Both the position numbers and the translations under genes were made by a program. This document shows, one piece after another, positions 2,226 to 57,143 of a DNA stretch of 64,000 nucleotides; the stretch's first letter is position 1, and the number at the start of each line of letters is the position of its first letter. Under the pieces are notes generated by a model. It was given only the letters and a program-made list of their open reading frames with translations. It was not told the origin of the DNA and made no database searches. The DNA is from a virus (Duplodnaviria; Caudoviricetes), in the IMG/VR virus record IMGVR_UViG_3300025413_001239, one strand, 5' to 3'.

Positions 2226-4280
2226 ATGGCTAGTAATAGAATAAAAGTTTTAGGTTATGCTCAAAAAGTAGTATATGAGGACCAAGTCCAATATACACCA
2301 TACACCCCAGATTTAGTTGGTTTTCAATTAGCTAGTAATGGTGGTACCCCTCTATTTACGATGGGTAACTTTTATGTTACAACAAACCTTGAGCCAAAAG
2401 TTAATAAAGTATTTGTAACCAATAATCAATCTAATTATAAGTCATTAAATGATATTAATTCTACTGGACAAGATATTCAAGTATTATTAGATAATAATAA
2501 TATTGTTGTTTTAAATCTTGATAAAACAAATTTATCTAATTATGCATTATTTAATTCACTTTCTGAATATGTTAGGGTTGCATTAGAAAATATTATCACA
2601 AATTGGCCAGCTGCTTTATATGTTAAACCATTATATGCGTTACCACCAAATTATTCAACTCAAAGTGGTGTTACATTTCAAAATTATTCATTCAATAATC
2701 TTACAAGTGTTTCCACTTTTGCCATTAATACAAATGTAATAGTTAATAATTTTCAAATAAACTATTTAGCTAGTGGTTCATTAGAAAAAACTTTTAACTC
2801 AACTAATTCATTAAGAAATATTGCGTTAAATTATTCACAATATTCAATTTTACTTAATGGGGTAGAGTACCCTATTTTAGGTTTTACTGGTTCCACACAA
2901 ATATCTAATGATTATATATATCTTTCAGTTAGTGGTGATGTATTTTCTGGTGCTGTTAGTGGATATAATACGTATCACATTAAACCAAATACTACACAAG
3001 AAAATTTATTTTATAATTCATTACCAAATTTTGAATATTATTTATTAAATAGATTATCAAATCCTTTATTTACAGCAACTTTTAGTTTTTCAGTTAAAAC
3101 CGATTCTGGTGGTATAGCTTATACAACAAATAGTGTTACTTGGCCAACTAGTGATGGGTACAATATTGATTTTGATTCAGATGCTTATACAGATTATGCA
3201 ACCAATTTATTAAATATTTCAACAAGTTATGATGATACAACTGGTAATTTAATGGTTAGATTCCTTGTAACAGAATCAATAACTGAATTTGATACATCAA
3301 GTGTTTATTTAGGTGATTTAGACCAAGATTCTACCGACCAAAAAATGAATAAGACACTAACCATCTATGGTGTTGAATACGATGAAATAAATAATTACAT
3401 ACAAGGTATTAGATTTGTTAATACTGTATCATATGATAAAAATAATAATACACCAGATATCTATTTAAAAAGTATTGCGAATATTTTAGGTTGGGACTTA
3501 GTTTCATCTATTTTAGAGAATGACTTATTAAGAAGTTATGTAACCCCTAACAAATCAACATATGCTGGGCATGGTGTTGGTTTAACGTTACAAGAAGCTG
3601 ATACTGAACTATGGAGAAGAATTATATTAAATTCACCTTGGATATGGAAATCAAAGGGTACTAGAAAAGCTATTGAATTTTTATTTAAGTTTATAGGTAC
3701 ACCTTCTGGTCTAATCACATTTAATGAATACGTTTATGCCGCTGAAGAATCAATTGATGTTGATTTATTTAAAAGTGTTTTAGCTTTAAATAAATTAAGT
3801 ACTGATATATCAAATTATCCTATAGATTTAAACGGAAACCCTAAACCATTAATTAACACATCATCAATTTACTTTCAAAGTAATGGGTTATGGTATAGGG
3901 AAACTGGGGGTGCCAATTCAATGTTAGATATAACAACAGGTAACAATCCACATATTGGACCATATGACGGTGGTTCAACATATTTAAATCAATTTAAAAC
4001 ACTTATACCTAATTTTAGTGCTGTAACCGTAAGTTCACAAACTGTTACAACAGTCACTCTTAATATGTTTACAAATTATAATTCTGGTACGTTTGACTTT
4101 TATAGTGGTGATACTTATATTAAGGTAATTGATTCAAAAAATATTGATATAACAGCATCTGGTACTACTATATCAATAATTGATGACCCATATAATCGTT
4201 TAGAATTTAACTGTAACGAGTGTCCAATACCTAATGATACAAAATCATTAAGTATTCTAATAAAAGGTAATAAAAGGTAA
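2226..4280 (+). CDS. Putative baseplate wedge subunit (P2 gpI / T4 gp7-like)
   Basis: LWRRIILN-PWIWKSKGTRKAIEFL resembles the Y/W-x-x-KGT-x-x-A-I motif of wedge proteins. Confidence 0.55.
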   Translation: MASNRIKVLGYAQKVVYEDQVQYTPYTPDLVGFQLASNGGTPLFTMGNFYVTTNLEPKVNKVFVTNNQSNYKSLNDINSTGQDIQVLLDNNNIVVLNLDKTNLSNYALFNSLSEYVRVALENIITNWPAALYVKPLYALPPNYSTQSGVTFQNYSFNNLTSVSTFAINTNVIVNNFQINYLASGSLEKTFNSTNSLRNIALNYSQYSILLNGVEYPILGFTGSTQISNDYIYLSVSGDVFSGAVSGYNTYHIKPNTTQENLFYNSLPNFEYYLLNRLSNPLFTATFSFSVKTDSGGIAYTTNSVTWPTSDGYNIDFDSDAYTDYATNLLNISTSYDDTTGNLMVRFLVTESITEFDTSSVYLGDLDQDSTDQKMNKTLTIYGVEYDEINNYIQGIRFVNTVSYDKNNNTPDIYLKSIANILGWDLVSSILENDLLRSYVTPNKSTYAGHGVGLTLQEADTELWRRIILNSPWIWKSKGTRKAIEFLFKFIGTPSGLITFNEYVYAAEESIDVDLFKSVLALNKLSTDISNYPIDLNGNPKPLINTSSIYFQSNGLWYRETGGANSMLDITTGNNPHIGPYDGGSTYLNQFKTLIPNFSAVTVSSQTVTTVTLNMFTNYNSGTFDFYSGDTYIKVIDSKNIDITASGTTISIIDDPYNRLEFNCNECPIPNDTKSLSILIKGNKR

Positions 4281-4288
4281 TAATTAAA

Positions 4289-7200
4289 ATGATAAATTTA
4301 TATAATAACACAAACTTAAATTATAACCCACCATTTAATATCATTTTAAATCCAAATGGTAATAGTGGTGAAATGTTTATTGTTACACCAGATGAAACAT
4401 GTACATTAAATATTTCATTTGATTATCTTTTCAAATTTGATTGTGCTGATTTACTTAGTTATACCAGAACTGGCAATAATTTATTAAGTTTGTTTGAATC
4501 AATAGGTGCATCAGTATCACTTAATTTATTAACAACAAATGATAAAAAAGTTACATCAACATCAGTATATAATGAAACATTTTTTAAACCAATTGGTGTT
4601 GGAAATATGTTTAATTACCTTAATAATTTAAATGGTGCATCTTCTGGATTTTTCTTATGTGGTGAAATTGGTAATGACCCAACGTGCCATCCGTTAACTA
4701 TTGATAATGCTAGTTCAACAACTTGTTCATTAGTTTTACCATCCATATATACAAGTTTACAAAATGAATATGGTTCTAAAATAACAAAAAGTTTTAACCC
4801 CTTAATTATTTCTGGTTTATCATCTACTTGGTCTAAATATAGTAAAGATATAACAGATTCAGCCATAATTAATAAAATTATTAATAAAAATATTAATATA
4901 AGTGTTGAAGTTAGTGGTACCGTTATTAATACATATGTTTTATTGGATAATATAGTAATTAAAAGAAATTGTACACATATTAGTGAAAATGATATTTTTG
5001 TATCTAAATCTCCAGGTTTTAATCTTAAAAAAGTTGTTGATAATAAAAAATCTTGGGTTTTAAATAAAAATGCTGAGGAAAGAGCGTTCAATGTTCCAAA
5101 TATTACCAATTTATTAACAAAAAGAGAAACTGATTATACAATAAATAATGGTTCACTTGTTCTTAATTCAAAAGAAATTGATTTAAATCTTGATATTTCT
5201 AAAGCTGTTGAAACAGATGTTTGGACATATATTGTTAATAATCCATGTATTTTAACTGGGTATAATGTTGACACAAAAATTGTCACTAAACAAGTCAGCA
5301 CACCAATTTATTCATCTGGAACTATTATATGTAGTGCACAATCGGTTAGTGTTTGTATTAGTGATGGTTGTGGTGATAAACCAATTAATATTAATGCGTT
5401 AACAACACAACCATTAAGCTTGGTGAAAACGGTTGAAAATTTTGAAGCATATGTTGAATCAGAATTGGTTGACGGTAAAAATAGAAAAATAATTTCATCA
5501 TATCCAACACTTAGATTACTCTATGATAGGTATATAAATAGTTTAGATTATTGCGGTACAAAATCAAATAATTTTGATTATTTTAAAATGATTAATTTCA
5601 CTAATCTTATTGGTAATTATTGGGTTGACTTAATTGAACAAGTAATGCCAGCAACAACCATTTGGAATTCAACAAAGGTTTATGGTAATACAATATTTGA
5701 TTCACAAAAATTTCAATATAAACCAAATACATTATTTTTTGGTACCGCTAGTACTTATAATCAAGTATTAAGTCCATGTACAGGTGTAACTTGTGGTGTT
5801 GATGTTAAAACAAGTGTAATCTTAAGTGGGTCAAGTAATATTTCAGAATTCTTAAGTCCAAAAACAAATAATGATTTTAGTAATGCTTATTTAATACAAT
5901 ATAATAGTGGTTCAGAATTTATTGGTTCTGTAACTAAAACAGTTAATTTCACATGTAATATTGAATTATCAACAAACACTACAAATGCTTTACCTAATAA
6001 TACAGGTGGTATTTGTAATACAATCCTAAGTAGTCCAAATGGTGCTGTTAACTATTCATTAAGTGCTAAATCATCAAATTCAATCATACAAAGTGGTCAG
6101 GGTGTAATGGTTCTTCCAATATTTAATAATTTATCAGCTGATACTTACACATTAACTGTTACGGATATTTATGGTTGTCACCAAAACTCAACATTTGTTA
6201 TTTCATATAACCCTTGTGTATTAACATTTACATCGGTTAACACTAATTCATTTAAGGGTATGAATAATGGTTTCGTTACTATTTCAAATATTAACGATAC
6301 TGGATTAGTAACTGGTTATACATTAACAAGTGGTGCGACAACAATAAGTGCTGGTACATTTAATAACCAAAACAATAACCAACAATTATCTTTAACAATT
6401 GCTAATTTATCAGCTGGAACTTATTCACTAACACTAACTGATAATTATGGTTGTAACGTAACTAGTGGTGTAACAATTAATGAAAATCCTTGTATTTTAA
6501 GTACTACAGCATTATCTGTACCATTTACACAATTTGATGATGGTACTGGAACTGGTTCCATAACTCTTAATGTTACTAATGCTTACGGTATACCTAGTTC
6601 AATACCAGCTGGTAACCCTCAACCAACATCAATCCAATCACCTAATTTAGGTGTATCATATACTGTAAGTGGTATAACAACAAATAAAACTGGGACAATT
6701 AATGATGTTAATAATCATACCGAAGGTAATTTAAGTGCTGGTGCTTATAATGTTAAATTTATCGATAATTCAGCTATAGGTTGTTATTCTAGTACGACAC
6801 TATCCATACCAAAAATAACATATAGTGGTTATGCTGGTTATTGTGAAATTGCAACCGCTGACTTTAAACTTAGGGAGTTTATAACTGGGTTTAGTTCACC
6901 AGTTTTATCATATTGGTTTCCAACAACTAAAAATGGTGGTAAAAATAGAATTTATGTTTTATTTAACGTCAATTCTAATTCAACTAATACTATTACTTCT
7001 AATATTTATTATCTTGACAATTCAAATGATTTTATTAAATCAACAACACCATACACACCATATTTTACTAGTTCAGATTTTAAACCAATTGGTACATATA
7101 ATGGGAATACGGTTAATAATTTTTATAAAAACGCTATATTTGATGAAAATAATAACAATATATATTTTTGTGGCGAAAATAGCATAAATCCAAATAGTGG

Positions 7201-48321: not shown

Positions 48322-49237
48322 GCAAATCTTAAGAGAAAACACTGAGAAGAATATTTTAGGTATTACCGTAACAAGACCTAATCAAGAGTTGATTATTATG
48401 AGAGGAATCTCTGGTAGTGGTAAAAGCACAATGGCTAAATCATTAGTTAAGGGTGGTGTCATACATTCAACCGATGACTTAATAGAAGCAACTGGTGATT
48501 ATAATGGATTCTTTGCTAAAATGATAGAAGCAAATAACTTTGCTGATTTAAGTCGTATGCACTCTAATAACCTCAAGAATGCGATGAAATCTATGGATAA
48601 TGGTATAAGTCCAGTCATAATAGATAACACGAATTTAAGACCTAGTGAGGCTAAACCATACGTAATGTATGCGTTAGAGATAGGCTATGCTGATGATAAT
48701 ATTAAAATTGTTGATGTTGGTACTGGTGGGTTAAGTGCTGAAGCTTTAGCGGCTAGAAATTCTCATGGTGTTCCATTAGAGAATATTCAACGAATGATTA
48801 ATACTTATAATGGTGTCGGCCCTTTAACTCTCAATAAAATTATTGAGGCTAGTGACATGTATAAATCATCTAATGTTTTATATTCTTGTGTTTTATTAGA
48901 TGATAATTCACGTAATTTATTATTATTAACATTTGCCGATGTTATACCGAATGGATGGAAAACGATAGCACATCATATGACAATTGTTTTTGGTAAGGGT
49001 ATTGACGATAAAAATGAGTTGGGTAAAGAAGTTGTATTAACAGTTACAAACGTTGGATGGAATGATAAAGCAATAGCTGTTTTGGTTGATGGTTATCCAT
49101 CTAAAAATGCTAATCCACATATTACATTAGCTATTAATCCAGATGGTGGTAAACCTAAGGATTCTAATGAAATTACAGATTGGAAAAAAATTAGACCATT
49201 TAAAATAAATGGTGTTGTGACAGAAATTAAAAAATAA
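48305..49237 (+). CDS. Polynucleotide kinase (AAA_33-like) fused to 2H 2',3'-cyclic phosphodiesterase
   Basis: MRGISGSGKST, IIDNTN, RNSHGVP; HHMTI and PHITL 2H motifs. Confidence 0.8.
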   Translation: MKKVIKQILRENTEKNILGITVTRPNQELIIMRGISGSGKSTMAKSLVKGGVIHSTDDLIEATGDYNGFFAKMIEANNFADLSRMHSNNLKNAMKSMDNGISPVIIDNTNLRPSEAKPYVMYALEIGYADDNIKIVDVGTGGLSAEALAARNSHGVPLENIQRMINTYNGVGPLTLNKIIEASDMYKSSNVLYSCVLLDDNSRNLLLLTFADVIPNGWKTIAHHMTIVFGKGIDDKNELGKEVVLTVTNVGWNDKAIAVLVDGYPSKNANPHITLAINPDGGKPKDSNEITDWKKIRPFKINGVVTEIKK

Positions 49238-49247
49238 ATTTGTTTGT

Positions 49248-49658
49248 TTGGTTTCTATTCTGTATATTTGCAAAAAGTTTTTTATGACAAAAGAAGAAAG
49301 AAGGCTTGACCTAAGCGGTAAGCTATTAAAAATGGGTGAGTCTTTAATATTAGAGGGTCGAGATTCTATGGATGGTTGTGTCATGGAAACTGGTAGTGCG
49401 TTAATTTTATTGGCTAATATCATTGAATCAGAAGATGATATGTTTGTTTTTGGTGAATTTGTATCTATGTTTTCAGCTAAGAAAGTATTAGAGGAAATGG
49501 AAAATAAGAAAAAACCTAATACAACTGAAGATTTACTAAAGGAAATTCTTGATTCATTTAAGAATGTCGGTAGTGATTTACCAAAAGAAACACCCAAAAA
49601 GACTCGTAGACCAAGAAAAAAAAGAAACGACAATGATGAACCAGAATCTGGTTCATAA
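49248..49658 (+). CDS. Hypothetical protein
   Basis: 136 aa; likely start MTKEER after TATATTTG. Confidence 0.55.
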   Translation: MVSILYICKKFFMTKEERRLDLSGKLLKMGESLILEGRDSMDGCVMETGSALILLANIIESEDDMFVFGEFVSMFSAKKVLEEMENKKKPNTTEDLLKEILDSFKNVGSDLPKETPKKTRRPRKKRNDNDEPESGS

Positions 49659-49681
49659 TTTTTAATATTAAAAAATAAAAT

Positions 49682-50272
49682 ATGTTAGCAATAGTAGAAT
49701 ACATAAAGAAAAATGGTTTAGATAATGCTATCGAAACTTTTAATTTAAAGGCTAAATTATACGAAAATAAGGTTCACATTAAATATGACCAAATAGGTTC
49801 GGATATGTCTCTTAAGGAGGTTCAAGAATGTCGTGGACTTATCCTAGATAGAAATACATTTGATGTAATCTCAATGTCCTTTTTCAAGTTCTTTAATAAC
49901 GGTGAAACTAATGCTGCTAAGATAGACTGGGATACAGCTCATGTATTTGAAAAAGTTGATGGTTGCCTTGATGAAAATACGTTGATAACGACTAATGAAG
50001 GTGTTAAAACGATTAAGGAAATTTGTGAAGAAAAACTTAATTGTAAAGTCTTGTCATATTGGGTTAATAGTAATGAGATTATCTTTGATGATATAATTGG
50101 ATGGTCAATTAAGGATAATATTAATGATTGGTATGAAATTAAATTGGATGACGAAACTTCAATTAAACTGACTGGTAATCATAAGGTTTGGTTACCAAAG
50201 CTAAATTGTTATAGACAAGTTTCAGATTTAACGGAAGCGGATGAATTCTTATTAAGTACTAAAAAAAATTAA
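49682..50272 (+). CDS. T4 Rnl1-like RNA ligase N-extein plus split intein N-half
   Basis: ECRGLI, FFKFFN, EKVDG|CLDENTLI (block A), LTGNHKVW (block B). Confidence 0.85.
   Translation: MLAIVEYIKKNGLDNAIETFNLKAKLYENKVHIKYDQIGSDMSLKEVQECRGLILDRNTFDVISMSFFKFFNNGETNAAKIDWDTAHVFEKVDGCLDENTLITTNEGVKTIKEICEEKLNCKVLSYWVNSNEIIFDDIIGWSIKDNINDWYEIKLDDETSIKLTGNHKVWLPKLNCYRQVSDLTEADEFLLSTKKN
49964..50272 (+). mobile_element. Split intein IntN (102 aa)
   Basis: Starts at Cys after KVDG; blocks A and B present; ends at stop. Confidence 0.85.
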
Positions 50273-50658
50273 ATTCTGGCAGCAATGTTTCAAATTTAGA
50301 AAAACGAATTGGTTATACTTTAGATAATTTAAATATTAAATTTGAAACTCAATATTTAATTAATAGGTTTTCTTATGATTATTATATCAATGATATAAAT
50401 TTATTAATAGAGGTTAATGGTGATTTTTGGCGTGCTAACCCAATAAAATATTTACCTGATGATATATTACCATTTCCGAAAAGTATTGAAATTAAAGCCA
50501 AAGATTTATGGTTAAAGGATAAACGAAAGAATGAATTAGCGATTAAAAATGGTTTTAATATAGTTACAATTTGGGAAATGGAGATTAATAATTTAAATAG
50601 TGTTGAACTTGAAATATTTTTGTTAAATAAATTAAATAACTTTATAAATGGAGACTAA
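50263..50658 (+). pseudogene. Start-less Vsr/DUF559-like endonuclease remnant
   Basis: Open frame SNLEKRI..FSYDYYI..LLIEVNGDFWRANP..KD..KNELA..GFNIVTIWE; no start codon; H of the usual FWH is R. Confidence 0.75.
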
Positions 50659-51610
50659 CGTAGTTAAAATAAAATCAATTAAAAAAATTGATTCTAATTC
50701 GAAAAGATATGACATACAAACAAAATTAACTAATAACTTTTTCGCTAATAATATTCTAGTTCATAACTCGATGATGCAAGTTTATTGGGACCCTTACGCT
50801 AATAAGTGGTTTGCTGGAACTACAGGTACTGCCGAAGGTGAGGGTGAAGTAAACAATAAGTCTGGGACAACGTTTAATGATTTGTTTTGGCAAGTTGTAA
50901 ACGACAAAGCTCCAAATATGCTTAGGTGGTTAAATAAGTTAAAGCATTGCACGTTTGTGTTTGAATTAACAACACCTTATAACATTGTGGTTAAGCCGCA
51001 TGGTGAATCTAGTATTACACTTTTAGCTGCAAGAGATAATCAAACACTTAAAGAGTTAAGGTATATTGATTTAAAGGTATTAGCAACAACTTTTGGTGTG
51101 CCAATAGTTAAATTATTCGACTTAAAAGCTAAGAACTTTGGTGACTTGATTAGAACATTTGAAGGAATGCCATGGTCTGAAGAAGGTTATGTCGTAATGG
51201 ATGAAAACTTCAATCGTGTTAAAGTTAAGAACCCAGCATACTGCGCTGTACATTTACTAAAAGGTAAATCAGCTGAACATAACATTTTAACAATCGTTAA
51301 GTCTAACGAAATTGAAGAATTCGCATCAACTTTCCCAGAAAGAAAAGAAGAATTATTTAAGCTTAAGGCCAACTACGATTTGTTGAATGCAAAGTTAAAT
51401 TCAGTGTGGGATGAACTAATACCAAGAAAGCCTAAAAACATAACAGCTAATGAAAAGAAGTTGTTTGCGGCTGCTGTATTTGAAGTTTGTAAGAAGCATA
51501 AGGTTGATAATTTCACTGGGTTATTCTTCCAATTGGAAGCTGGTAAAATAGAATCAGTTGATGAGTATTTGATGGAATATGACAATAAAAAGTTGTACCA
51601 TATACTTTAA
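50648..51610 (+). CDS. Split intein C-half (40 aa) plus RNA ligase C-extein
   Basis: YDIQT..NNFFANNILVHN|S; FVFEL, EEGYVV, RVKVK ligase motifs. Confidence 0.85.
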   Translation: METNVVKIKSIKKIDSNSKRYDIQTKLTNNFFANNILVHNSMMQVYWDPYANKWFAGTTGTAEGEGEVNNKSGTTFNDLFWQVVNDKAPNMLRWLNKLKHCTFVFELTTPYNIVVKPHGESSITLLAARDNQTLKELRYIDLKVLATTFGVPIVKLFDLKAKNFGDLIRTFEGMPWSEEGYVVMDENFNRVKVKNPAYCAVHLLKGKSAEHNILTIVKSNEIEEFASTFPERKEELFKLKANYDLLNAKLNSVWDELIPRKPKNITANEKKLFAAAVFEVCKKHKVDNFTGLFFQLEAGKIESVDEYLMEYDNKKLYHIL

Positions 51611-51670
51611 AAAATAAATTTGGTGGAATGAAAGTTCCACCTTATTTTTGCACTCTAAATAAAATAAACA

Positions 51671-52402
51671 ATGACAATTAAGCAAATTTTCGATGAAATC
51701 GCAAGCGAATCATCTACGAACAAAAAAGTTGAAATCCTTAACAAGTATAAAGACAATGACTTATTAAAGAGGGTTCTGTATTTGGCTAATTCACCTCGTA
51801 TTAAGTTTTATATCAAGCAAATTCCAGAGTATGAATCTGGTCCATTTAATCAAGACTTATCAGTTGGTTTGGATAGCTTGAGTCCATTATCCTTAAGGCA
51901 ATTAACTGGACATGCTGCCATAAATCACTTAGCTGCAACTCTTGAGTTTTGTAGCGAAGATGATGCTTATATCATCGAGCGTATCATCGAAAAGGATTGC
52001 AAAATTAATTTGGGTACTTCACTTATTAATAAAGTATTTCCTAAACTAATTGAAGAAACACCTTACATGGGTGCTAAGGCTTTTGATGAGAAATTAGCTA
52101 AGGCTATATTTAAAGATGGTTCAGCTTTAAGCCAAGTTAAGATGGATGGTCGTTATTGCAATGCTGTAATAGCGAATAATTCAGTTGATATGGAAAGCCG
52201 CCAAGGTGAACCAACGCTATTAGGTGATGCGTATTTTATAAGCGAATTAAATCAGCTTAAGGATTGCGTTTTAAACGGTGAGTTGACAATGAAGTGTATT
52301 GAATCTAAATTTACTTTTAATAAAGACGATTTAATCGAAATTGACGGTATTAAATATACCACCAAAGAAATAAAAAATAAATTTTTACCATTAATTGAAT
52401 AA
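51671..52402 (+). CDS. ATP-dependent DNA ligase, N-terminal fragment
   Basis: KMDGRY (motif I), SRQG, LNGEL (motif III) then a non-ligase tail. Confidence 0.85.
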   Translation: MTIKQIFDEIASESSTNKKVEILNKYKDNDLLKRVLYLANSPRIKFYIKQIPEYESGPFNQDLSVGLDSLSPLSLRQLTGHAAINHLAATLEFCSEDDAYIIERIIEKDCKINLGTSLINKVFPKLIEETPYMGAKAFDEKLAKAIFKDGSALSQVKMDGRYCNAVIANNSVDMESRQGEPTLLGDAYFISELNQLKDCVLNGELTMKCIESKFTFNKDDLIEIDGIKYTTKEIKNKFLPLIE

Positions 52403-52440
52403 AATGAAAGTTCAACATATTTATAAATAAATATAAATTT

Positions 52441-53337
52441 ATGTATGTAACTTATTTAATTATTTATAATGGTGATAAATTACCACCATTATATATTGGG
52501 TCAACTAGTTTAGAAAAAATAGAGAATGGGTATCGAGGGTCAATCTCATCGAAGAAATATAAAAATATTTTTAAAGAAGAGTTAAAAAGTAATTTTAACC
52601 TATTCGATGTTATCATTCTATCAAAACATGAAACTAGAATTGAAGCATTGGAAATGGAATTAGATTTACAAAAAAAGTTTGATGTGGTAAAATCAAATAA
52701 ATTTATGAATCAATCCTTAGCATCAGTTAATGGCATGTTTGGTATGGATGTAAATGGTAAAAATAACCCAATGTTTGGTAAGAAACATTCAGACAAAACA
52801 AGAAATGTACTAAAGGAAAAACGTGGAAATAATAAACGATATGAATTAACCGATAAACATAAAGAAATTATTAGTAAAACACACGCTAATAAAGTTATTT
52901 CTGAAAACACAAAAAAATTAATTTCAGATAAATTAAAGGGTAAATACATAGGTAAAGATAATCCTATGTTTGGTAAAAAACATAGTGAAGAGACTAAAAT
53001 TAAAATATCTAAAAGTAACAGTGGTAAAATTAGAACAGATGAATTCAAACAAAGAACATCCGAATTAAATAAGGGTAAAATTATTTCTGAAGATACCAAG
53101 ATAAAAATATCTAGGGCTAAAATCGGAAAAAAACGTACTTCTTTTAGTAAAGAGTGGCGAGAAAATATATCTAAAGCTAATAAAGGTAGAATTCTTAGTG
53201 AAGAAACTCGAAAAAAACTGAGTAAACCAAGAGAATCAACAAAATCGGTATGCCCATATTGTGGGTTTATTGGTGGTGGCGGTAATATGAAACGCTATCA
53301 TTTTGAGAATTGTAAAATAAATAAAAATAAGGTATGA
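52441..53337 (+). CDS. GIY-YIG (Seg-like) homing endonuclease with NUMOD3 repeats
   Basis: VTYLI..LYIGST; NPMFGKKHS repeats; CPYC..NMKRYHFENCK. Confidence 0.85.
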   Translation: MYVTYLIIYNGDKLPPLYIGSTSLEKIENGYRGSISSKKYKNIFKEELKSNFNLFDVIILSKHETRIEALEMELDLQKKFDVVKSNKFMNQSLASVNGMFGMDVNGKNNPMFGKKHSDKTRNVLKEKRGNNKRYELTDKHKEIISKTHANKVISENTKKLISDKLKGKYIGKDNPMFGKKHSEETKIKISKSNSGKIRTDEFKQRTSELNKGKIISEDTKIKISRAKIGKKRTSFSKEWRENISKANKGRILSEETRKKLSKPRESTKSVCPYCGFIGGGGNMKRYHFENCKINKNKV

Positions 53338-54164
53338 ACATTAATTCTAATGAAATAAAAAAAATAATAGTTAATAACGATGGTAGTCTTGAAATATTGA
53401 CAATGAAGGGTATATCTCGTTACGAGAGCAACGGCATCATAGCATCTCTTATTTCAATTAGAAAGAAAGAATTAGATGGTAAGGATGTACGCAAGGAAAT
53501 ACTTGAGTTTGAAAAAGAACACATGGTTTATCAAACAGCGTTGGATTCAATTATTTTCACTGCTTGGGATATGATAACACTTGAAGAATATACTGCCGCT
53601 AAATCAGTTAGACAATATCGTGAAAGATACGCTGAATTGGTTGCGCTATTAAACGCTAATAATTTTACCAATCTTTCAGTTGTTGAAACAAAAGAGGTTA
53701 AGACTTATGAAGAAGCTATTGAACACTTTCAAGAGGTTTTAGCTAGAGGTGAAGAAGGTACAATACTTAAATCATCTAAGGGTGCTTGGAAAGACGGTAA
53801 ACCTAACCATCAAATTAAGCTAAAAAAAGAAATTAATCTTGATTTAAAAATTGTAGGTTTTAATTACGGAACGGGTAAAAATAAAGACGTTATATCATCC
53901 ATTGATGTTGAGAGTTCAGATGGTTTACTTAAAACGAGCCCGACAGGAATTAATGAATCTATGATGAAATTTATCACAGAAAATCAGGATAAACTTTTGA
54001 ACACTATTATTGAGGTAAAGTGTTCTGGGTTGTCAAAGGATTCAGATGGTAATTATTCTTTGTTACACCCAGTATTCAAATCTTTACGTACTGATGAAAA
54101 GAGTATTGCTGATTCATTAGATGAGTGTATTAAAATAGATAAAGCTGCTATGGGGTTATCTTAA
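53334..54164 (+). CDS. ATP-dependent DNA ligase, C-terminal fragment
   Basis: SRYESNG, FTAWD, EEGTILK (IV), KLKK (V), SLLHPVF..R.DEK (VI). Confidence 0.85.
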   Translation: MNINSNEIKKIIVNNDGSLEILTMKGISRYESNGIIASLISIRKKELDGKDVRKEILEFEKEHMVYQTALDSIIFTAWDMITLEEYTAAKSVRQYRERYAELVALLNANNFTNLSVVETKEVKTYEEAIEHFQEVLARGEEGTILKSSKGAWKDGKPNHQIKLKKEINLDLKIVGFNYGTGKNKDVISSIDVESSDGLLKTSPTGINESMMKFITENQDKLLNTIIEVKCSGLSKDSDGNYSLLHPVFKSLRTDEKSIADSLDECIKIDKAAMGLS

Positions 54165-54342: not shown

Positions 54343-54759
54343 TTGTTAAAAAAACAATGGGTGAAGAATAATCATCAAGGTGTAAATGAATATCGTAAAA
54401 ATTACTATTTAAATAATAAAGAAAAAATACTAACAAAAAATAAAGAATGGAATAAAAAAAATGCGCATATTGTATCTTGGCGCACCATTTTGAAATCGCA
54501 ACTTAGGAGAATGGGTAATAGTAAAGAAGGAAAAACAATTGATTTATTAGGGTATTCAGCGTTAGAACTGAAAAACCATATCGAATCCTTATTTACTGAA
54601 GGTATGACTTGGGATAATCATGGTGAATGGCATATTGACCATAAAATACCCGTAACTAAATTTGAAAAAAATGTTCCTCCACATATTGTAAATGCGTTAA
54701 ATAATTTACAACCATTATGGGCGAACGAAAACAGAAGTAAATATAATAAAATTTTATAA
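54343..54759 (+). CDS. HNH-type endonuclease (WHIDH family), probably 5'-truncated
   Basis: MTWDNHGEWHIDHKIP..NLQPLWANENRSK. Confidence 0.7.
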   Translation: MLKKQWVKNNHQGVNEYRKNYYLNNKEKILTKNKEWNKKNAHIVSWRTILKSQLRRMGNSKEGKTIDLLGYSALELKNHIESLFTEGMTWDNHGEWHIDHKIPVTKFEKNVPPHIVNALNNLQPLWANENRSKYNKIL

Positions 54760-54775
54760 ATTAAAAATAATTGAA

Positions 54776-55609
54776 ATGACAAGTAAACGACATATCGGGT
54801 TTCCATCTATTGACCAGTTTAAGACAGTTGTCTCCAACATCAATAGAAGACACAATTTTGTTGGTTTGGATGCCAACGGTGATGCAATTTATGACCCATC
54901 AAAACCTAAGCCAAAGCTTAAGTTTAAGGGTACGGTAAAACTACATGGTACCAACTTCGGTGTATGTTATAATGACATCGCTGGATTATGGGCACAATCT
55001 AGGGAAAATATAATCACCTCCCAAAAAGATAATGCTGGCTCCGCTTTTTTTGTTGAGTCCAATACAGAAGCTTTCTTGGATTTATTTAACCAAGTAAAGA
55101 ATAAGTTAAATTTGGATTTGACTCAAAACACAATTTCAATTTATGGTGAGTGGGCTGGTAAGGGTATTCAAAAGTCTGTTGCGATTTCCAATTTGGATAA
55201 GTCTATGTTTATTTTTGGTGTTAAGATTACACCTCATCCAAAGGATGAAGATGATAAGACACCAGCTTATTGGGTTGATTCGTCATACCTAAGGAACCAT
55301 GAGCATAGGATTTACAATATTGAGGATTATGAGACTTATGAGATTGAAATCGATTTCAATTATCCTCAATTGGCTCAGAATAAGCTAATTGAAATGACTA
55401 TTGCTGTTGAGGATGAATGTCCTGTTGGTAAAGCCTTTGGTCATGTTGCGTTAACAGACAATACAGCATATGAAGAAAATGGTAAAATTTGGTTTGAACG
55501 AGAAAATAGTTTTACAGATATATTAAAAAATCAATTAATTGATGAATTTAGAATACTTCGTAATAAATATCCGATAGGTATAAATAAAATATTTTTTACT
55601 ATTCTATAG
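54776..55609 (+). CDS. Rnl2-like RNA ligase, N-terminal fragment
   Basis: VKLHGTN (motif I), QSR, IYGEWAG (III), FIFGV; ends after ECPVGKAFG with an unrelated tail. Confidence 0.8.
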   Translation: MTSKRHIGFPSIDQFKTVVSNINRRHNFVGLDANGDAIYDPSKPKPKLKFKGTVKLHGTNFGVCYNDIAGLWAQSRENIITSQKDNAGSAFFVESNTEAFLDLFNQVKNKLNLDLTQNTISIYGEWAGKGIQKSVAISNLDKSMFIFGVKITPHPKDEDDKTPAYWVDSSYLRNHEHRIYNIEDYETYEIEIDFNYPQLAQNKLIEMTIAVEDECPVGKAFGHVALTDNTAYEENGKIWFERENSFTDILKNQLIDEFRILRNKYPIGINKIFFTIL

Positions 55610-55652
55610 TCTTTTATACAATACCCAGATATTTATAAATAAAGATAAATAT

Positions 55653-56648
55653 ATGGAAAAAAAATTTGTTGTGTATCGAACAATTTATTCTGGTGATAGA
55701 TTACCGAAATATTACATTGGTTCAACTAGTTTAGAAAAGATAAAATCTGGTTATTATGGTAGTGTCAGAAGTAAAAAATATAAAGATATTTTCTATTCTG
55801 AATTAAAACTACATCCTAATTTATTTAGTATTGAGATTTTGTCATACCATGATTCTAGGAATGATGCACTTTCAGAAGAATTATTACAACAAATTAAACA
55901 CAATGTTGTTGAGTCGGACGAATACTTTAATGAAAGTTTTGCTAGTATAAATGGTTATTTTGGTAGACATGTCAAAGGCATTAGCCATCCAAAATTTGGT
56001 TTATCAAATTACAAAATTTGGATTAATAAATATGGTTTAGATATTGCTAATGAAAAATTAAAAGTTTATTTAACGAAACAAAGTATATCTAACGGCGGTA
56101 AGAATAATCCAATGTTTGGTAGAAATAAAGAAGTTGTTGCAATTGATGTAAATAGCGGTCTGAAGGTTCGTGTAAATAAAGTCGAGTTTGATAATCGAAT
56201 TGATTTATCTGGTCATACACTTGGATATGTTACGGTTATTGATAAATCAACTGGTGAAAAAATAACGATTAATAAATCTAATTATAACTTAGAAAAACAT
56301 TTACATCATAACACAAATAGAAAACATAATGATACAGTTAAAGCTAAACTCTCAAAAATTAGAAAGGGTTTAATAACCGCTAAAGATTGGGATGGTAATT
56401 ATTATCGGGTGAGTAAAGATGACCCTAGATTTGAATCAGGTGAATTATCAAATATTTTTAGTAAACGTTGGATAGTTGTTGATAATTTTGGTAAGAAATA
56501 TAATGTTATGAATATTAAAAAATTTATGAAAAGTAAAAATATTCATTTTAATGAAAAAATTATAATTAACTCTGATGGTAGTGTAACAAATCATAATGTT
56601 AAAAAATATAATTCATTAAATGGTTGGAATTTAAAATGTTTAGATTAA
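55653..56648 (+). CDS. GIY-YIG (Seg-like) homing endonuclease, paralog of 52441
   Basis: VVYRTIYSGDRLPKYYIGSTSLEKI..GY.GS..SKKYK. Confidence 0.85.
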   Translation: MEKKFVVYRTIYSGDRLPKYYIGSTSLEKIKSGYYGSVRSKKYKDIFYSELKLHPNLFSIEILSYHDSRNDALSEELLQQIKHNVVESDEYFNESFASINGYFGRHVKGISHPKFGLSNYKIWINKYGLDIANEKLKVYLTKQSISNGGKNNPMFGRNKEVVAIDVNSGLKVRVNKVEFDNRIDLSGHTLGYVTVIDKSTGEKITINKSNYNLEKHLHHNTNRKHNDTVKAKLSKIRKGLITAKDWDGNYYRVSKDDPRFESGELSNIFSKRWIVVDNFGKKYNVMNIKKFMKSKNIHFNEKIIINSDGSVTNHNVKKYNSLNGWNLKCLD

Positions 56649-56660
56649 AAATAAAATAAA

Positions 56661-57143
56661 ATGTATAAAATTAAATTAATTAGTGGTGGTTCGTCTGAAC
56701 ATCAAGAAGAAATTAACAAGGTTATTGATTTGGATATAAATACAATCGGTGAGGGTATTGTTTTCTCTTATTATGCTGAGGATGGTGAGGTTTATCGGTT
56801 CAAATCTAAGGGAACTAAACACTCAAAGGCTTCTAAAGTTACAACACTTAAGCCAGTTGATGATGCTAAAATCAATAACATTATTGAAACTGTTAATAAG
56901 GTTTGTGTTTCTTGGAGACTTGAGCAAATGCTTGACAAGACCTTTGACCTTATGAATGGTGGTACCATTGACATCAAAAGGCTTGGTGATTTTATTAGAA
57001 ATGTTATCGCCGATATTCTTAAAGAAGAATTGGAAACAATAGCTGAGGCTGGCCTTGAACCTAAAGACATTAATGCTAAGGTTTCTGAGAGATGTCGAAA
57101 TTACTTTTTTCAAAAACAAAATGAAGAAGTTGGGCTTGTTTAA
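56661..57143 (+). CDS. Rnl2-like RNA ligase, C-terminal fragment
   Basis: IGEGIV (motif IV), FKSKG.KH (motif V), DILKEE. Confidence 0.8.
   Translation: MYKIKLISGGSSEHQEEINKVIDLDINTIGEGIVFSYYAEDGEVYRFKSKGTKHSKASKVTTLKPVDDAKINNIIETVNKVCVSWRLEQMLDKTFDLMNGGTIDIKRLGDFIRNVIADILKEELETIAEAGLEPKDINAKVSERCRNYFFQKQNEEVGLV

Follow-up and report, generated by a model that had tools for sequence, protein, structure and literature searches.

A split intein interrupts motif I of a predicted Rnl1-type RNA ligase and flanks the remnant of a Vsr-like homing endonuclease gene

Nucleotide positions 49682–51610 of the window (the whole stretch of DNA analyzed, 64,000 nt, IMG/VR virus record IMGVR_UViG_3300025413_001239) display a fractured gene for a predicted Rnl1-type RNA ligase, the product of which is most likely rebuilt by protein trans-splicing. 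The ligase sequence is interrupted by a naturally split intein whose halves are on separate open reading frames, and between the halves is the remnant of a homing endonuclease gene. The locus is a new and well-documented case of a layout known since 2009 rather than a new kind of system. Its features are as follows.

49636–49656, + strand: terminator-like hairpin at the 3′ end of the preceding gene; upstream limit of the unit with both ligase halves
49682–49963, + strand: N-extein, first 94 aa of the predicted Rnl1-type RNA ligase (matches to PF09511 and phrog_562), C-terminus E-K-V-D-G
49964–50272, + strand: IntN, 102 aa and TAA stop codon (Intein_splicing, Hint), with Cys1 in block A and T-G-N-H in block B
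50261–50270, + strand: A8 run and deletion junction, where the end of IntN runs into codon 180 of what was the endonuclease gene
50263–50658, + strand: EDxHD (Vsr-like) homing endonuclease remnant of 131 codons, limited to the nuclease domain and recognized by similarity to the L081 endonuclease
50648–50767, + strand: IntC, 40 aa with its own ATG (Pfam Intein_splicing and NrdJ-1 matches), ending in H-N (blocks F and G)
50768–51610, + strand: C-extein, Ser+1 and 279 further ligase aa (phrog_562, E-value = 3e-24; T4 Rnl1 structures 2c5u and 5tt6)
51622–51641, + strand: terminator-like hairpin followed by a T-run, directly 3′ of the C-extein gene

The source of the window is a giant lake phage. 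The open reading frame at positions 49682–50272 has 94 aa of ligase sequence ending in EKVDG, followed by 102 aa that start with CLDENTLI and include TGNHKVW. The codon of the motif I lysine (K91) is at 49952–49954, in the N-extein, and the TAA stop codon is at 50270–50272. The open reading frame at 50648–51610 starts with METNVVKIK; its ILVHN ends at residue 40 and is followed by SMMQ, the beginning of 280 aa of ligase sequence. The intein halves are therefore separated by a stop codon after IntN and by an ATG of IntC's own at 50648, which overlaps the stop codon of the nuclease remnant. The same stop after IntN, the same separate IntC start and a split at the same codon are found in seven relatives (L006, L010, L011, L016, L017, L018 and L081). 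Within positions 48200–51800 of the + strand only two terminator-like sites are present; these flank the ligase unit and there is none between the two halves, thus both open reading frames are probably co-transcribed. No ribosome-binding site is recognizable before the IntC ATG or before the ATG of the N-terminal half at 49682. At gathering thresholds Rfam finds tRNAs only in the window, thus no group I or group II intron accounts for the split.

The host protein is predicted from sequence to be a T4 Rnl1-type RNA ligase that is cut between the Gly and Ser of motif I (K-V-D-G-S). The N-extein match to PF09511 has a score of 28.6 bits, the cutoff being 28.3. In L001, an intein-free ortholog, KVDGS aligns with K99-E-D-G-S of T4 Rnl1. 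A reading of the T4 Rnl1 alignment places motifs III, IV and V in the C-extein, with FEL/FEF, EGYV/EGYV and KVK/KIK paired. In about 70 related phage contigs the ligase is uninterrupted; here the sequences comparable to the N- and C-exteins abut with a gap of 0 nt, and KxDG is followed directly by S or T. Residue +1 is Ser in all intein-bearing alleles tabulated, and Ser or Thr in the empty alleles. The intein is thus a true insertion, precise and in frame, that is absent from the empty-site orthologs, and the proposal of the earlier note that the split bisects motif I KxDGS of an RNA ligase is borne out. That note also considered an RNA ligase host to be unusual. The fractured genes listed in 2009 indeed include no such host, but metagenomes show it to be common, with hundreds of clusters.

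A gene for a kinase/phosphoesterase healing enzyme is located one gene upstream of the locus, in keeping with a tRNA-repair pair. Rnl2 is a second RNA ligase of this phage. The Rnl2 and DNA ligase genes of this genome are each split by GIY-YIG genes, without an intein.

IntN matches the Pfam families Intein_splicing and Hint, and IntC matches positions 120–155 of the 155 positions of Intein_splicing. Each of blocks A, B, F and G has been retained, as in a class 1 intein with a Hint fold. Cys1, T70 and H73 (T70-G-N-H73) are invariant in eight aligned IntN sequences, and Cys1 is at the head of IntN in all relatives tabulated. IntC ends in FFANNILVHN and is followed by S; H39, N40 and S41 do not vary among the aligned loci. 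In the PDB, the NrdJ-1 split intein is the top match for either half. For IntN this was seen with a profile (8ubs, E-value = 3e-11), whereas NrdJ-1 was not among the PDB matches of the single IntN sequence at E ≤ 1. For IntC the E-value is 4e-4 with the single sequence and 3.7e-10 with a profile. The net charge is −7 for IntN and +4 for IntC. These properties agree with the original description of a naturally split intein with a 102 aa IntN and a 40 aa IntC. The further suggestion that the pair may be a new orthogonal split intein is doubtful with respect to NrdJ-1, as the IntC sequences are about 60% identical by a hand count on the alignment; a degree of cross-reaction with NrdJ-1 is to be expected.

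Both the intein halves and the ligase parts are under purifying selection. The dN/dS values are 0.04–0.34 for IntN, 0.04–0.31 for IntC and 0.08–0.18 for the exteins; the extein value is 0.09 when compared with L001, which is the closest intact allele. Between the two loci that have no endonuclease the values for the intein halves are 0.057 and 0.068.

The cassette is mobile and far younger than the host gene. Between the window and L081 the dS of the cassette is 0.17–0.28 and that of the extein is 1.42, and seven intein alleles require seven changes on the extein tree. The IntN clade comprises 277 cluster representatives (E ≤ 1e-10), nearly all split. Most of the clade occupies motif I in several ligase families, and ligase motif I is the insertion site in about 85% of the cluster representatives with the best scores. 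No contiguous intein was present among 13 matches of the IntC search, and the exhaustive IntN search gave one contiguous form, P0170 (520 aa). The IntN hits number 555 in all.

The frame at positions 50263–50658 is open for 131 codons, has no ATG, GTG or TTG start and is in the −1 frame relative to IntN. At the stop codon frequency of the window the probability of such an open frame by chance is about 1e-5. The translated sequence displays a weak similarity to DUF559 (Pfam) and matches endonuclease families in PHROGs. A blastn search of the phage collection gave an 88 bp match of the nuclease remnant to Campylobacter phages only, and no close relative of the stretch was detected in that collection. 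In L081, a close relative, an intact gene for a 310 aa Vsr-like (EDxHD) endonuclease is located between the intein halves. The remnant is 86% identical to residues 180–310 of this enzyme, and residues 1–179 (the DUF7487 region) have no match anywhere in the window.

Alignment of the nucleotide sequences shows how this part was lost. Positions 1–589 and 581–1677 of the locus align with L081 positions 1741–2329 and 2919–4015, respectively, and both edges of the lost segment in L081 read TAAAAAAATT. A length of 589 bp is missing between the two TAAAAAAATT repeats, and with it the upstream region as well as the start codon and 179 codons of the gene. In addition, the general-base His is replaced by Arg57 (CGT at 50431–50433), while E50, D54 and D86 are kept. 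This position is His in all four full-length or frameshifted relatives aligned, and it corresponds to H69 of Vsr and H213 of I-Bth0305I; H213A and D222A were the substitutions chosen for inactivated I-Bth0305I constructs (PMC3239194). The endonuclease encoded in the window is thus predicted to be dead, its N-terminal part being deleted and its general base replaced. The selection statistics alone are no proof of this, since the remnant dN/dS relative to L081 (0.34) is no higher than that between intact endonucleases (0.12–0.48) and the frame is still open.

The loci form a series of decay. An intact, free-standing endonuclease gene is found between the halves in L081, L006, L010 and L011; the gene is frameshifted in L016, half-deleted and altered at the active site in the window, and absent in L017 and L018. 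A decayed, start-less Vsr/DUF559-like frame had been recognized in the earlier note, to which the deletion and the His to Arg change can now be added. The start codon is indeed absent, as that note stated, but its loss is less unusual than was supposed, as loss of the endonuclease has already been described for gp41-7.

It is conceivable, though improbable, that the remnant is still in use. If slippage took place at the A8 run, IntN would be fused to the 131 aa nuclease domain, and ribosomes that terminate at the stop codon of the remnant could re-initiate at the IntC ATG, which would couple the two halves. A decaying selfish gene would then have turned into a translational control element that tunes or couples synthesis of the two ligase halves. 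The slip site would be the heptamer A-AAA-AAT directly 5′ of the TAA stop codon, with either a ribosomal −1 or a transcriptional +1A event. An A8 run followed by a stop codon is a plausible slip site, as in slippage of the dnaX and IS types, and no stop codon interrupts the −1 frame between the A-run and the one that overlaps the IntC start. This geometry is, however, a trivial consequence of the deletion between the two TAAAAAAATT repeats. The A-run is already present at the IntN end in L081, where the −1 frame leads nowhere, and L017 and L018, which are without the endonuclease gene, have no such frame. The fused nuclease would be without its general-base His and without the whole DNA-binding part. 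The downstream RNA folds somewhat better than shuffled sequences (−13.6 kcal/mol, z = −2.1), but the hairpin is weak and AU-rich and begins at the slip site itself. It is the sole candidate for a frameshift stimulator and is unconvincing.

There is also little likelihood that the halves associate by way of the intein without splicing, the intein being a dimerization handle in a non-covalent two-chain ligase comparable to the Aeh1 NrdA enzyme. The split DNA ligase and Rnl2 genes of the same genome show that the phage tolerates two-chain ligases without an intein. Yet the residues required only for splicing (Cys1, the block B Thr and His, His-Asn and Ser+1) are those found invariant in the aligned loci, with Cys1 conserved at the head of IntN throughout the relatives tabulated. 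Furthermore, without splicing, motif I would be interrupted by a Hint domain of about 140 aa beside the catalytic lysine.

It is very unlikely that the insertion broke the ligase gene and left it as a decaying pseudogene that is out of use. The neighboring endonuclease is clearly decaying and Rnl2 is present in the phage, but the low extein dN/dS relative to the closest intact allele, the retention of active-site residues that align with T4 Rnl1, the finding of both open reading frames intact and identical in five contigs from other assemblies, and the same split architecture in hundreds of clusters argue against it. Finally, although sequencing errors are typical of homopolymers such as the A8 run at the junction, there is next to no chance that the real genome has a contiguous intein or an IntN-nuclease fusion (A9), given the assemblies described below and the seven other loci with an IntN stop and a separate IntC start.

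Two other assemblies from different samples (JGI and ENA contigs) contain the entire 1929 bp stretch with 100% identity. Three shorter contigs, including a Logan contig of run SRR5260592, are 99.9–100% identical over the parts covered; the Logan contig matches over the 1040 bp that it covers. The A8 run is present in the JGI, ENA and Logan contigs. Identity across independent assemblies excludes mis-assembly of a contiguous intein, which was the artefact that the earlier note had raised against its own reading.

The preferred reading is that of trans-splicing, which would proceed as follows. The two open reading frames would be translated separately, giving an N-extein-IntN chain of 196 aa and an IntC-C-extein chain of 320 aa. 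The acidic IntN and the basic IntC may associate into one Hint fold. A thioester would form at Cys1, the N-extein would be transferred to Ser+1, and cyclization of IntC Asn40 would follow. The predicted outcome is a 374 aa ligase of about 43 kDa with motif I, K-V-D-G-S, restored. Before splicing, the lysine that is adenylylated would be on one polypeptide and motifs III–V on the other, thus ligase activity should depend on splicing.

The intein presumably arrived with a free-standing EDxHD (Vsr-like) homing endonuclease gene between its halves, and would have spread by homing. Later in this phage lineage, the 589 bp deletion and the His to Arg change at the general base would have destroyed the endonuclease; the first 179 codons, lost by the deletion, appear to represent its DNA-binding N-terminal part. 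With the endonuclease destroyed, the intein would now be immobile, and we propose that it is kept because the ligase needs it.

Fractured genes have been described for gp41-1 to gp41-8, NrdJ-1/2, NrdA, IMPDH, DnaE, DNA ligase and terminase (Dassa, London, Stoddard, Schueler-Furman and Pietrokovski 2009; PMC2677866), among which gp41-7 was reported as a locus without an endonuclease. As had been pointed out at the outset, the layout described here matches that arrangement of split inteins with Vsr-like endonucleases. The endonuclease stop codon overlaps the next start in both, and the layout is found mainly in environmental phages. The differences are that the host is an ATP-dependent Rnl1-type RNA ligase, which is outside the eight host types given there, and that half of the endonuclease is missing in the window, the deletion having been mapped by comparison with a close relative.

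The similarity of IntC to NrdJ-1 (PDB 8ubs, 9omb) includes YDIQT and NFFAN-ILVHN, and in the deposited NrdJ-1 chain, too, IntC is followed by Ser. Unlike the ligase intein, NrdJ-1 has the ribonucleotide reductase NrdJ as its host, and the similarity of the IntN halves is low. The full-length endonucleases of the relatives resemble I-Bth0305I (PMC3239194; PDB 3r3p), the EDxHD prototype, in having an N-terminal DNA-binding region and a C-terminal Vsr-fold nuclease (E, D, H, D). The gene of I-Bth0305I, however, is in a recA group I intron (PMC3239194), and the window copy differs in having no N-terminal region, no start codon and an Arg where the general-base His would be.

T4 RNA ligase 1 (RnlA; PDB 2c5u, 5tt6) is of the same family as the ligase in the window (PF09511, phrog_562), and motifs I, III, IV and V align according to a reading of the HMMER alignments. 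The upstream kinase/phosphoesterase gene would be the counterpart of T4 Pnkp. In contrast to the window ligase, the T4 enzyme is one uninterrupted polypeptide, and the similarity is remote (E-value = 5e-9 for the intact ortholog). In Aeromonas phage Aeh1 (nrdA-a/mobE/nrdA-b) a homing endonuclease gene likewise splits an essential enzyme gene and the enzyme still works (Friedrich et al. 2007, as cited in PMC3045599). According to that account, assembly in Aeh1 is non-covalent, by way of peptides, whereas covalent rejoining of the chain is expected from the split intein in the window; the intein-less pattern of Aeh1 is shared by the DNA ligase and Rnl2 of the window.

The literature covered, including PMC2677866, PMC3239194, PMC5259590, PMC3322345, PMC7824862 and a 2025 preprint on actinobacteriophage inteins, contained no description of an Rnl1-type ligase with an intein. 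The preprint describes inteins in RtcB-like and ‘tRNA-splicing’ ligases, which were identified by InterPro families.

The finding leaves the concepts of the field unchanged. The enzymes known to be fractured by split inteins now include ATP-dependent RNA ligases, with the cut at the adenylylation motif itself. The clade consists of natural relatives of the fast NrdJ-1 intein and is a pool to screen for protein engineering. The series of loci represents a dated snapshot of the homing cycle, with the intein under selection throughout, and the RNA-repair capacity of such phages would hinge on protein trans-splicing.

The RNA ligase gene of the window is divided between two open reading frames, with a third frame between them:

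49636–49656, + strand: terminator-like hairpin directly 5′ of the first open reading frame
49682–50272, + strand: N-terminal open reading frame, 196 aa; 94 aa of ligase ending in E-K-V-D-G, then the 102 aa N-terminal intein half (IntN), which begins CLDENTLI, contains L-T-G-N-H-K-V-W and ends at a TAA stop
50261–50268, + strand: A8 run
50263–50658, + strand: middle frame (the remnant), open over 131 codons, in the -1 frame relative to IntN
50648–51610, + strand: C-terminal open reading frame, 320 aa; the first 40 aa (METNVVKIK...ILVHN) are the C-terminal intein half (IntC), followed by SMMQVYWD and the remaining ligase
51622–51641, + strand: terminator-like hairpin directly 3′ of the second open reading frame

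In Pfam and PHROGs searches the outer parts match RNA_lig_T4_1 (PF09511) and phrog_562 (RNA ligase and tail fiber attachment catalyst), and the inner parts match Intein_splicing and Hint. The middle frame weakly matches DUF559 and phage endonuclease families, and the latter matches fall within the C-terminal portion of profiles that are far longer. No ATG, GTG or TTG is present in frame at positions 50263–50658, and the chance of an open frame of 131 codons is about 1e-5 at the window's stop-codon frequency. Coordinates and residues agree exactly with the description of this region in the earlier note, and the family matches are consistent with it.

The closest relative with a cassette (IntN, endonuclease gene and IntC) is the ENA contig L081. 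Its IntN is 86% identical to that of the window, and a 310 aa endonuclease is encoded between the halves, with a Cys-rich start and repeated KYGVDNV-like modules (Pfam DUF7487) in the N-terminal region and a Vsr-fold nuclease domain in the C-terminal part. The window aligns to L081 positions 1741–2329 and 2919–4015 and both L081 edges read TAAAAAAATT, which shows a 589-bp deletion between direct repeats. This deletion took out the intergenic region, the start codon and codons 1–179 of the endonuclease gene; the lost part has no match anywhere in the 64-kb window. In addition, the EVNGDFWHANP block is invariant in aligned relatives (EVNGDFWHGNP in L081) and reads EVNGDFWRANP in the remnant. A profile search aligns the changed position with H69 of E. 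coli Vsr and with the residue altered by H213A in the crystallized I-Bth0305I construct. The aligned His is taken as the general base, and inactivated I-Bth0305I constructs were made by H213A and D222A (PMC3239194). The proposal of a decayed Vsr-like endonuclease between the halves is therefore upheld.

The endonuclease is intact in four related loci (L006, L010, L011 and L081), frameshifted in L016, half-deleted in the window and gone in L017 and L018, where spacers of 100–150 bp are left. Together these present the whole decay series. The dN/dS of the remnant versus L081 is 0.34, which is no different from intact endonuclease pairs and does not decide decay; the small divergence from L081 (dS 0.17) accounts for the frame being still open. 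The endonuclease-free spacers (L017 1925–2033 and L018 3357–3498) have an unusually high G+C content compared with these genomes, and inverted repeats occur in them, e.g. GGGT..ACCC in L017. They may be control hairpins left over from the lost gene.

If the A8 run caused slippage (-1 or +1A), IntN would be fused to the nuclease stump. Such slippage is unlikely, as the geometry has a trivial origin in the deletion between direct repeats, the nuclease active site is dead, its DNA-binding part is missing and there is no convincing stimulator.

A scan of IMG/VR with the C-terminal open reading frame gave 80 related loci. In about 70 of these the matches to the ligase parts flanking the intein (N- and C-exteins) adjoin with a gap of 0 nt, and K-x-D-G is followed by S or T. 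Six IMG/VR loci (L006, L010, L011, L016, L017 and L018) and L081 are split at the same codon. The +1 residue is Ser in all tabulated intein-bearing alleles and Ser or Thr in empty alleles. KVDGS of the uninterrupted ortholog L001 aligns with KEDGS of T4 RNA ligase 1 (structure 2c5u), which is motif I with the adenylylated lysine. The FEF, EGYV and KxK segments of the C-extein also align with T4 Rnl1 and are read as motifs III, IV and V. Thus the intein is a true insertion that bisects ligase motif I, as had been claimed.

The aligned loci all share Cys1, Thr70 and His73 of block B, YDI and FFAN-IL-HN of IntC, and Ser+1. The best PDB match of both half-profiles is the NrdJ-1 split intein (8ubs), with E-values of 3e-11 for IntN and 3.7e-10 for IntC; the DnaE and gp41-1 inteins rank behind it. 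The single IntC sequence also matches NrdJ-1, with about 60% identity (counted by hand on the alignment). IntN is acidic (net charge -7) and IntC is basic (+4), as is known for other natural split inteins. These properties bear out the reading of a split intein, and conservation of residues needed only for splicing contradicts a non-covalent assembly of the ligase halves.

The dN/dS values are 0.04–0.34 for IntN and 0.04–0.31 for IntC (0.057 and 0.068 in the endonuclease-free pair L017 and L018), and both halves are under purifying selection. The exteins, with a dN/dS of 0.09 between the window and its closest empty allele, L001, are under strong constraint, which contradicts a ligase pseudogene. 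Between the window and L081, dS is 0.23 for IntN, 0.28 for IntC and 0.17 for the nuclease domain, versus 1.42 for the exteins. A maximum-likelihood tree of 63 extein sequences needs seven gains or losses for the seven intein-bearing rows; at least six of these are required by its starred branches, no improvement over shuffled labels. The low cassette dS and the repeated gains or losses mean that the cassette has moved between diverged ligase alleles, or was repeatedly removed by conversion, as homing predicts.

Mis-assembly is contradicted by independent assemblies: the exact 196 aa product is found on 18 contigs (JGI, ENA and Logan, different samples; some of 0.2–1 Mb), and of five contigs compared, two (JGI and ENA) are 100% identical over the whole 1929-bp stretch including the A8 run, and three shorter ones, one from Logan, show 99.9–100% identity over the covered part.

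The two hairpins are the only terminator-like ones on the + strand around the ligase halves, which are therefore probably co-transcribed, with separate translation. Judging from the conserved residues, IntN and IntC would come together and splice in trans along the standard class 1 pathway: Cys1 would form a thioester, the N-extein would be transferred to Ser+1, Asn40 of IntC would cyclise and an O-to-N shift would complete the peptide bond. The predicted product is a 374 aa ligase with motif I restored. Its neighbor is:

48299–49658: a kinase (AAA_33) fused to a 2H/CPD-like phosphoesterase domain, then a conserved 136 aa open reading frame directly upstream of the ligase

The kinase-phosphoesterase gene is thus one gene upstream of the ligase. 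The gene order is common to L081–L088, and tRNA genes are located near the ligase locus in the window. With these neighbors, the ligase would fit a tRNA repair role like that of T4 Pnkp/Rnl1.

An exhaustive HMMER search with IntN of 1.84 billion cluster representatives gave 555 matches at E ≤ 1e-3 and 277 at E ≤ 1e-10. With one exception, the 148 best matches with upstream sequence have an intein part that stops at most a few residues short of the protein end, which indicates split forms. K-x-[D/H]-G directly precedes the intein in 109 of the 148, and in 16 more it is displaced by 1–2 residues to either side. The sole contiguous form among these 148 is P0170 (520 aa), a ligase that carries a mini-intein at this same position. 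Its joint, ...DFLLREGG-MKLKSIRK..., has Met at the IntC-start position of split relatives; P0170 may represent either a split intein that was re-fused or an ancestral mini-intein. A minority of relatives (P0094, P0114, P0121, P0130, P0132, P0153, P0172, P0186, P0201, P0202, P0210 and others) follow K-T-D-E-x-R or T/S-R-G-D/N-G instead; these are additional sites at which this intein clade has inserted. The hosts include several ligase types, among them PF09511 and PF09414 (Rnl2-like) with a PHA02142 OB-fold N-terminus.

The layout is that of the "fractured gene" of Dassa et al. 2009 (PMC2677866), as the earlier note had recognized. That note also regarded the host and the loss of the endonuclease start as unusual. 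RNA ligase is indeed not among the eight host types of that study, and a literature search found no report of an intein in an Rnl1-type ligase; however, a locus without endonuclease was already described there, and most of the best-scoring IntN relatives sit at ligase motif I.

In other related loci, N-extein residues 1–35 are duplicated about 900 bp upstream (L007–L009, L024, L028 and L053) or C-extein ends are duplicated downstream (L058, L067, L068 and L074, the last with a Vsr-like match at 5400–5657). Such partial duplications next to additional genes suggest that other free-standing endonucleases have inserted at the two ends (5′ and 3′) of the same ligase gene.

Two further ligase genes of this phage group are interrupted:

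L004, 2796–5177: Rnl2-type ligase cut at K-L-H-G|...H-N|S-N by a related split intein, which is accompanied by a separate Vsr-like gene (276 aa); the same in L005
Window, 54740–57137: Rnl2-type ligase with an empty motif I site, interrupted further downstream
Window, 51671–54164: ATP-dependent DNA ligase in two open reading frames (51671–52402 and 53334–54164) around a GIY-YIG/NUMOD3 gene (52441–53337)

The split DNA ligase at 51671–54164 contains no intein and no Rfam intron, and its ortholog in L004 is a single 465 aa open reading frame. The window locus is not conceptually new; it is a well-resolved specimen of a large, little-described clade, and in this phage group each of the three ligase genes is targeted by selfish elements.
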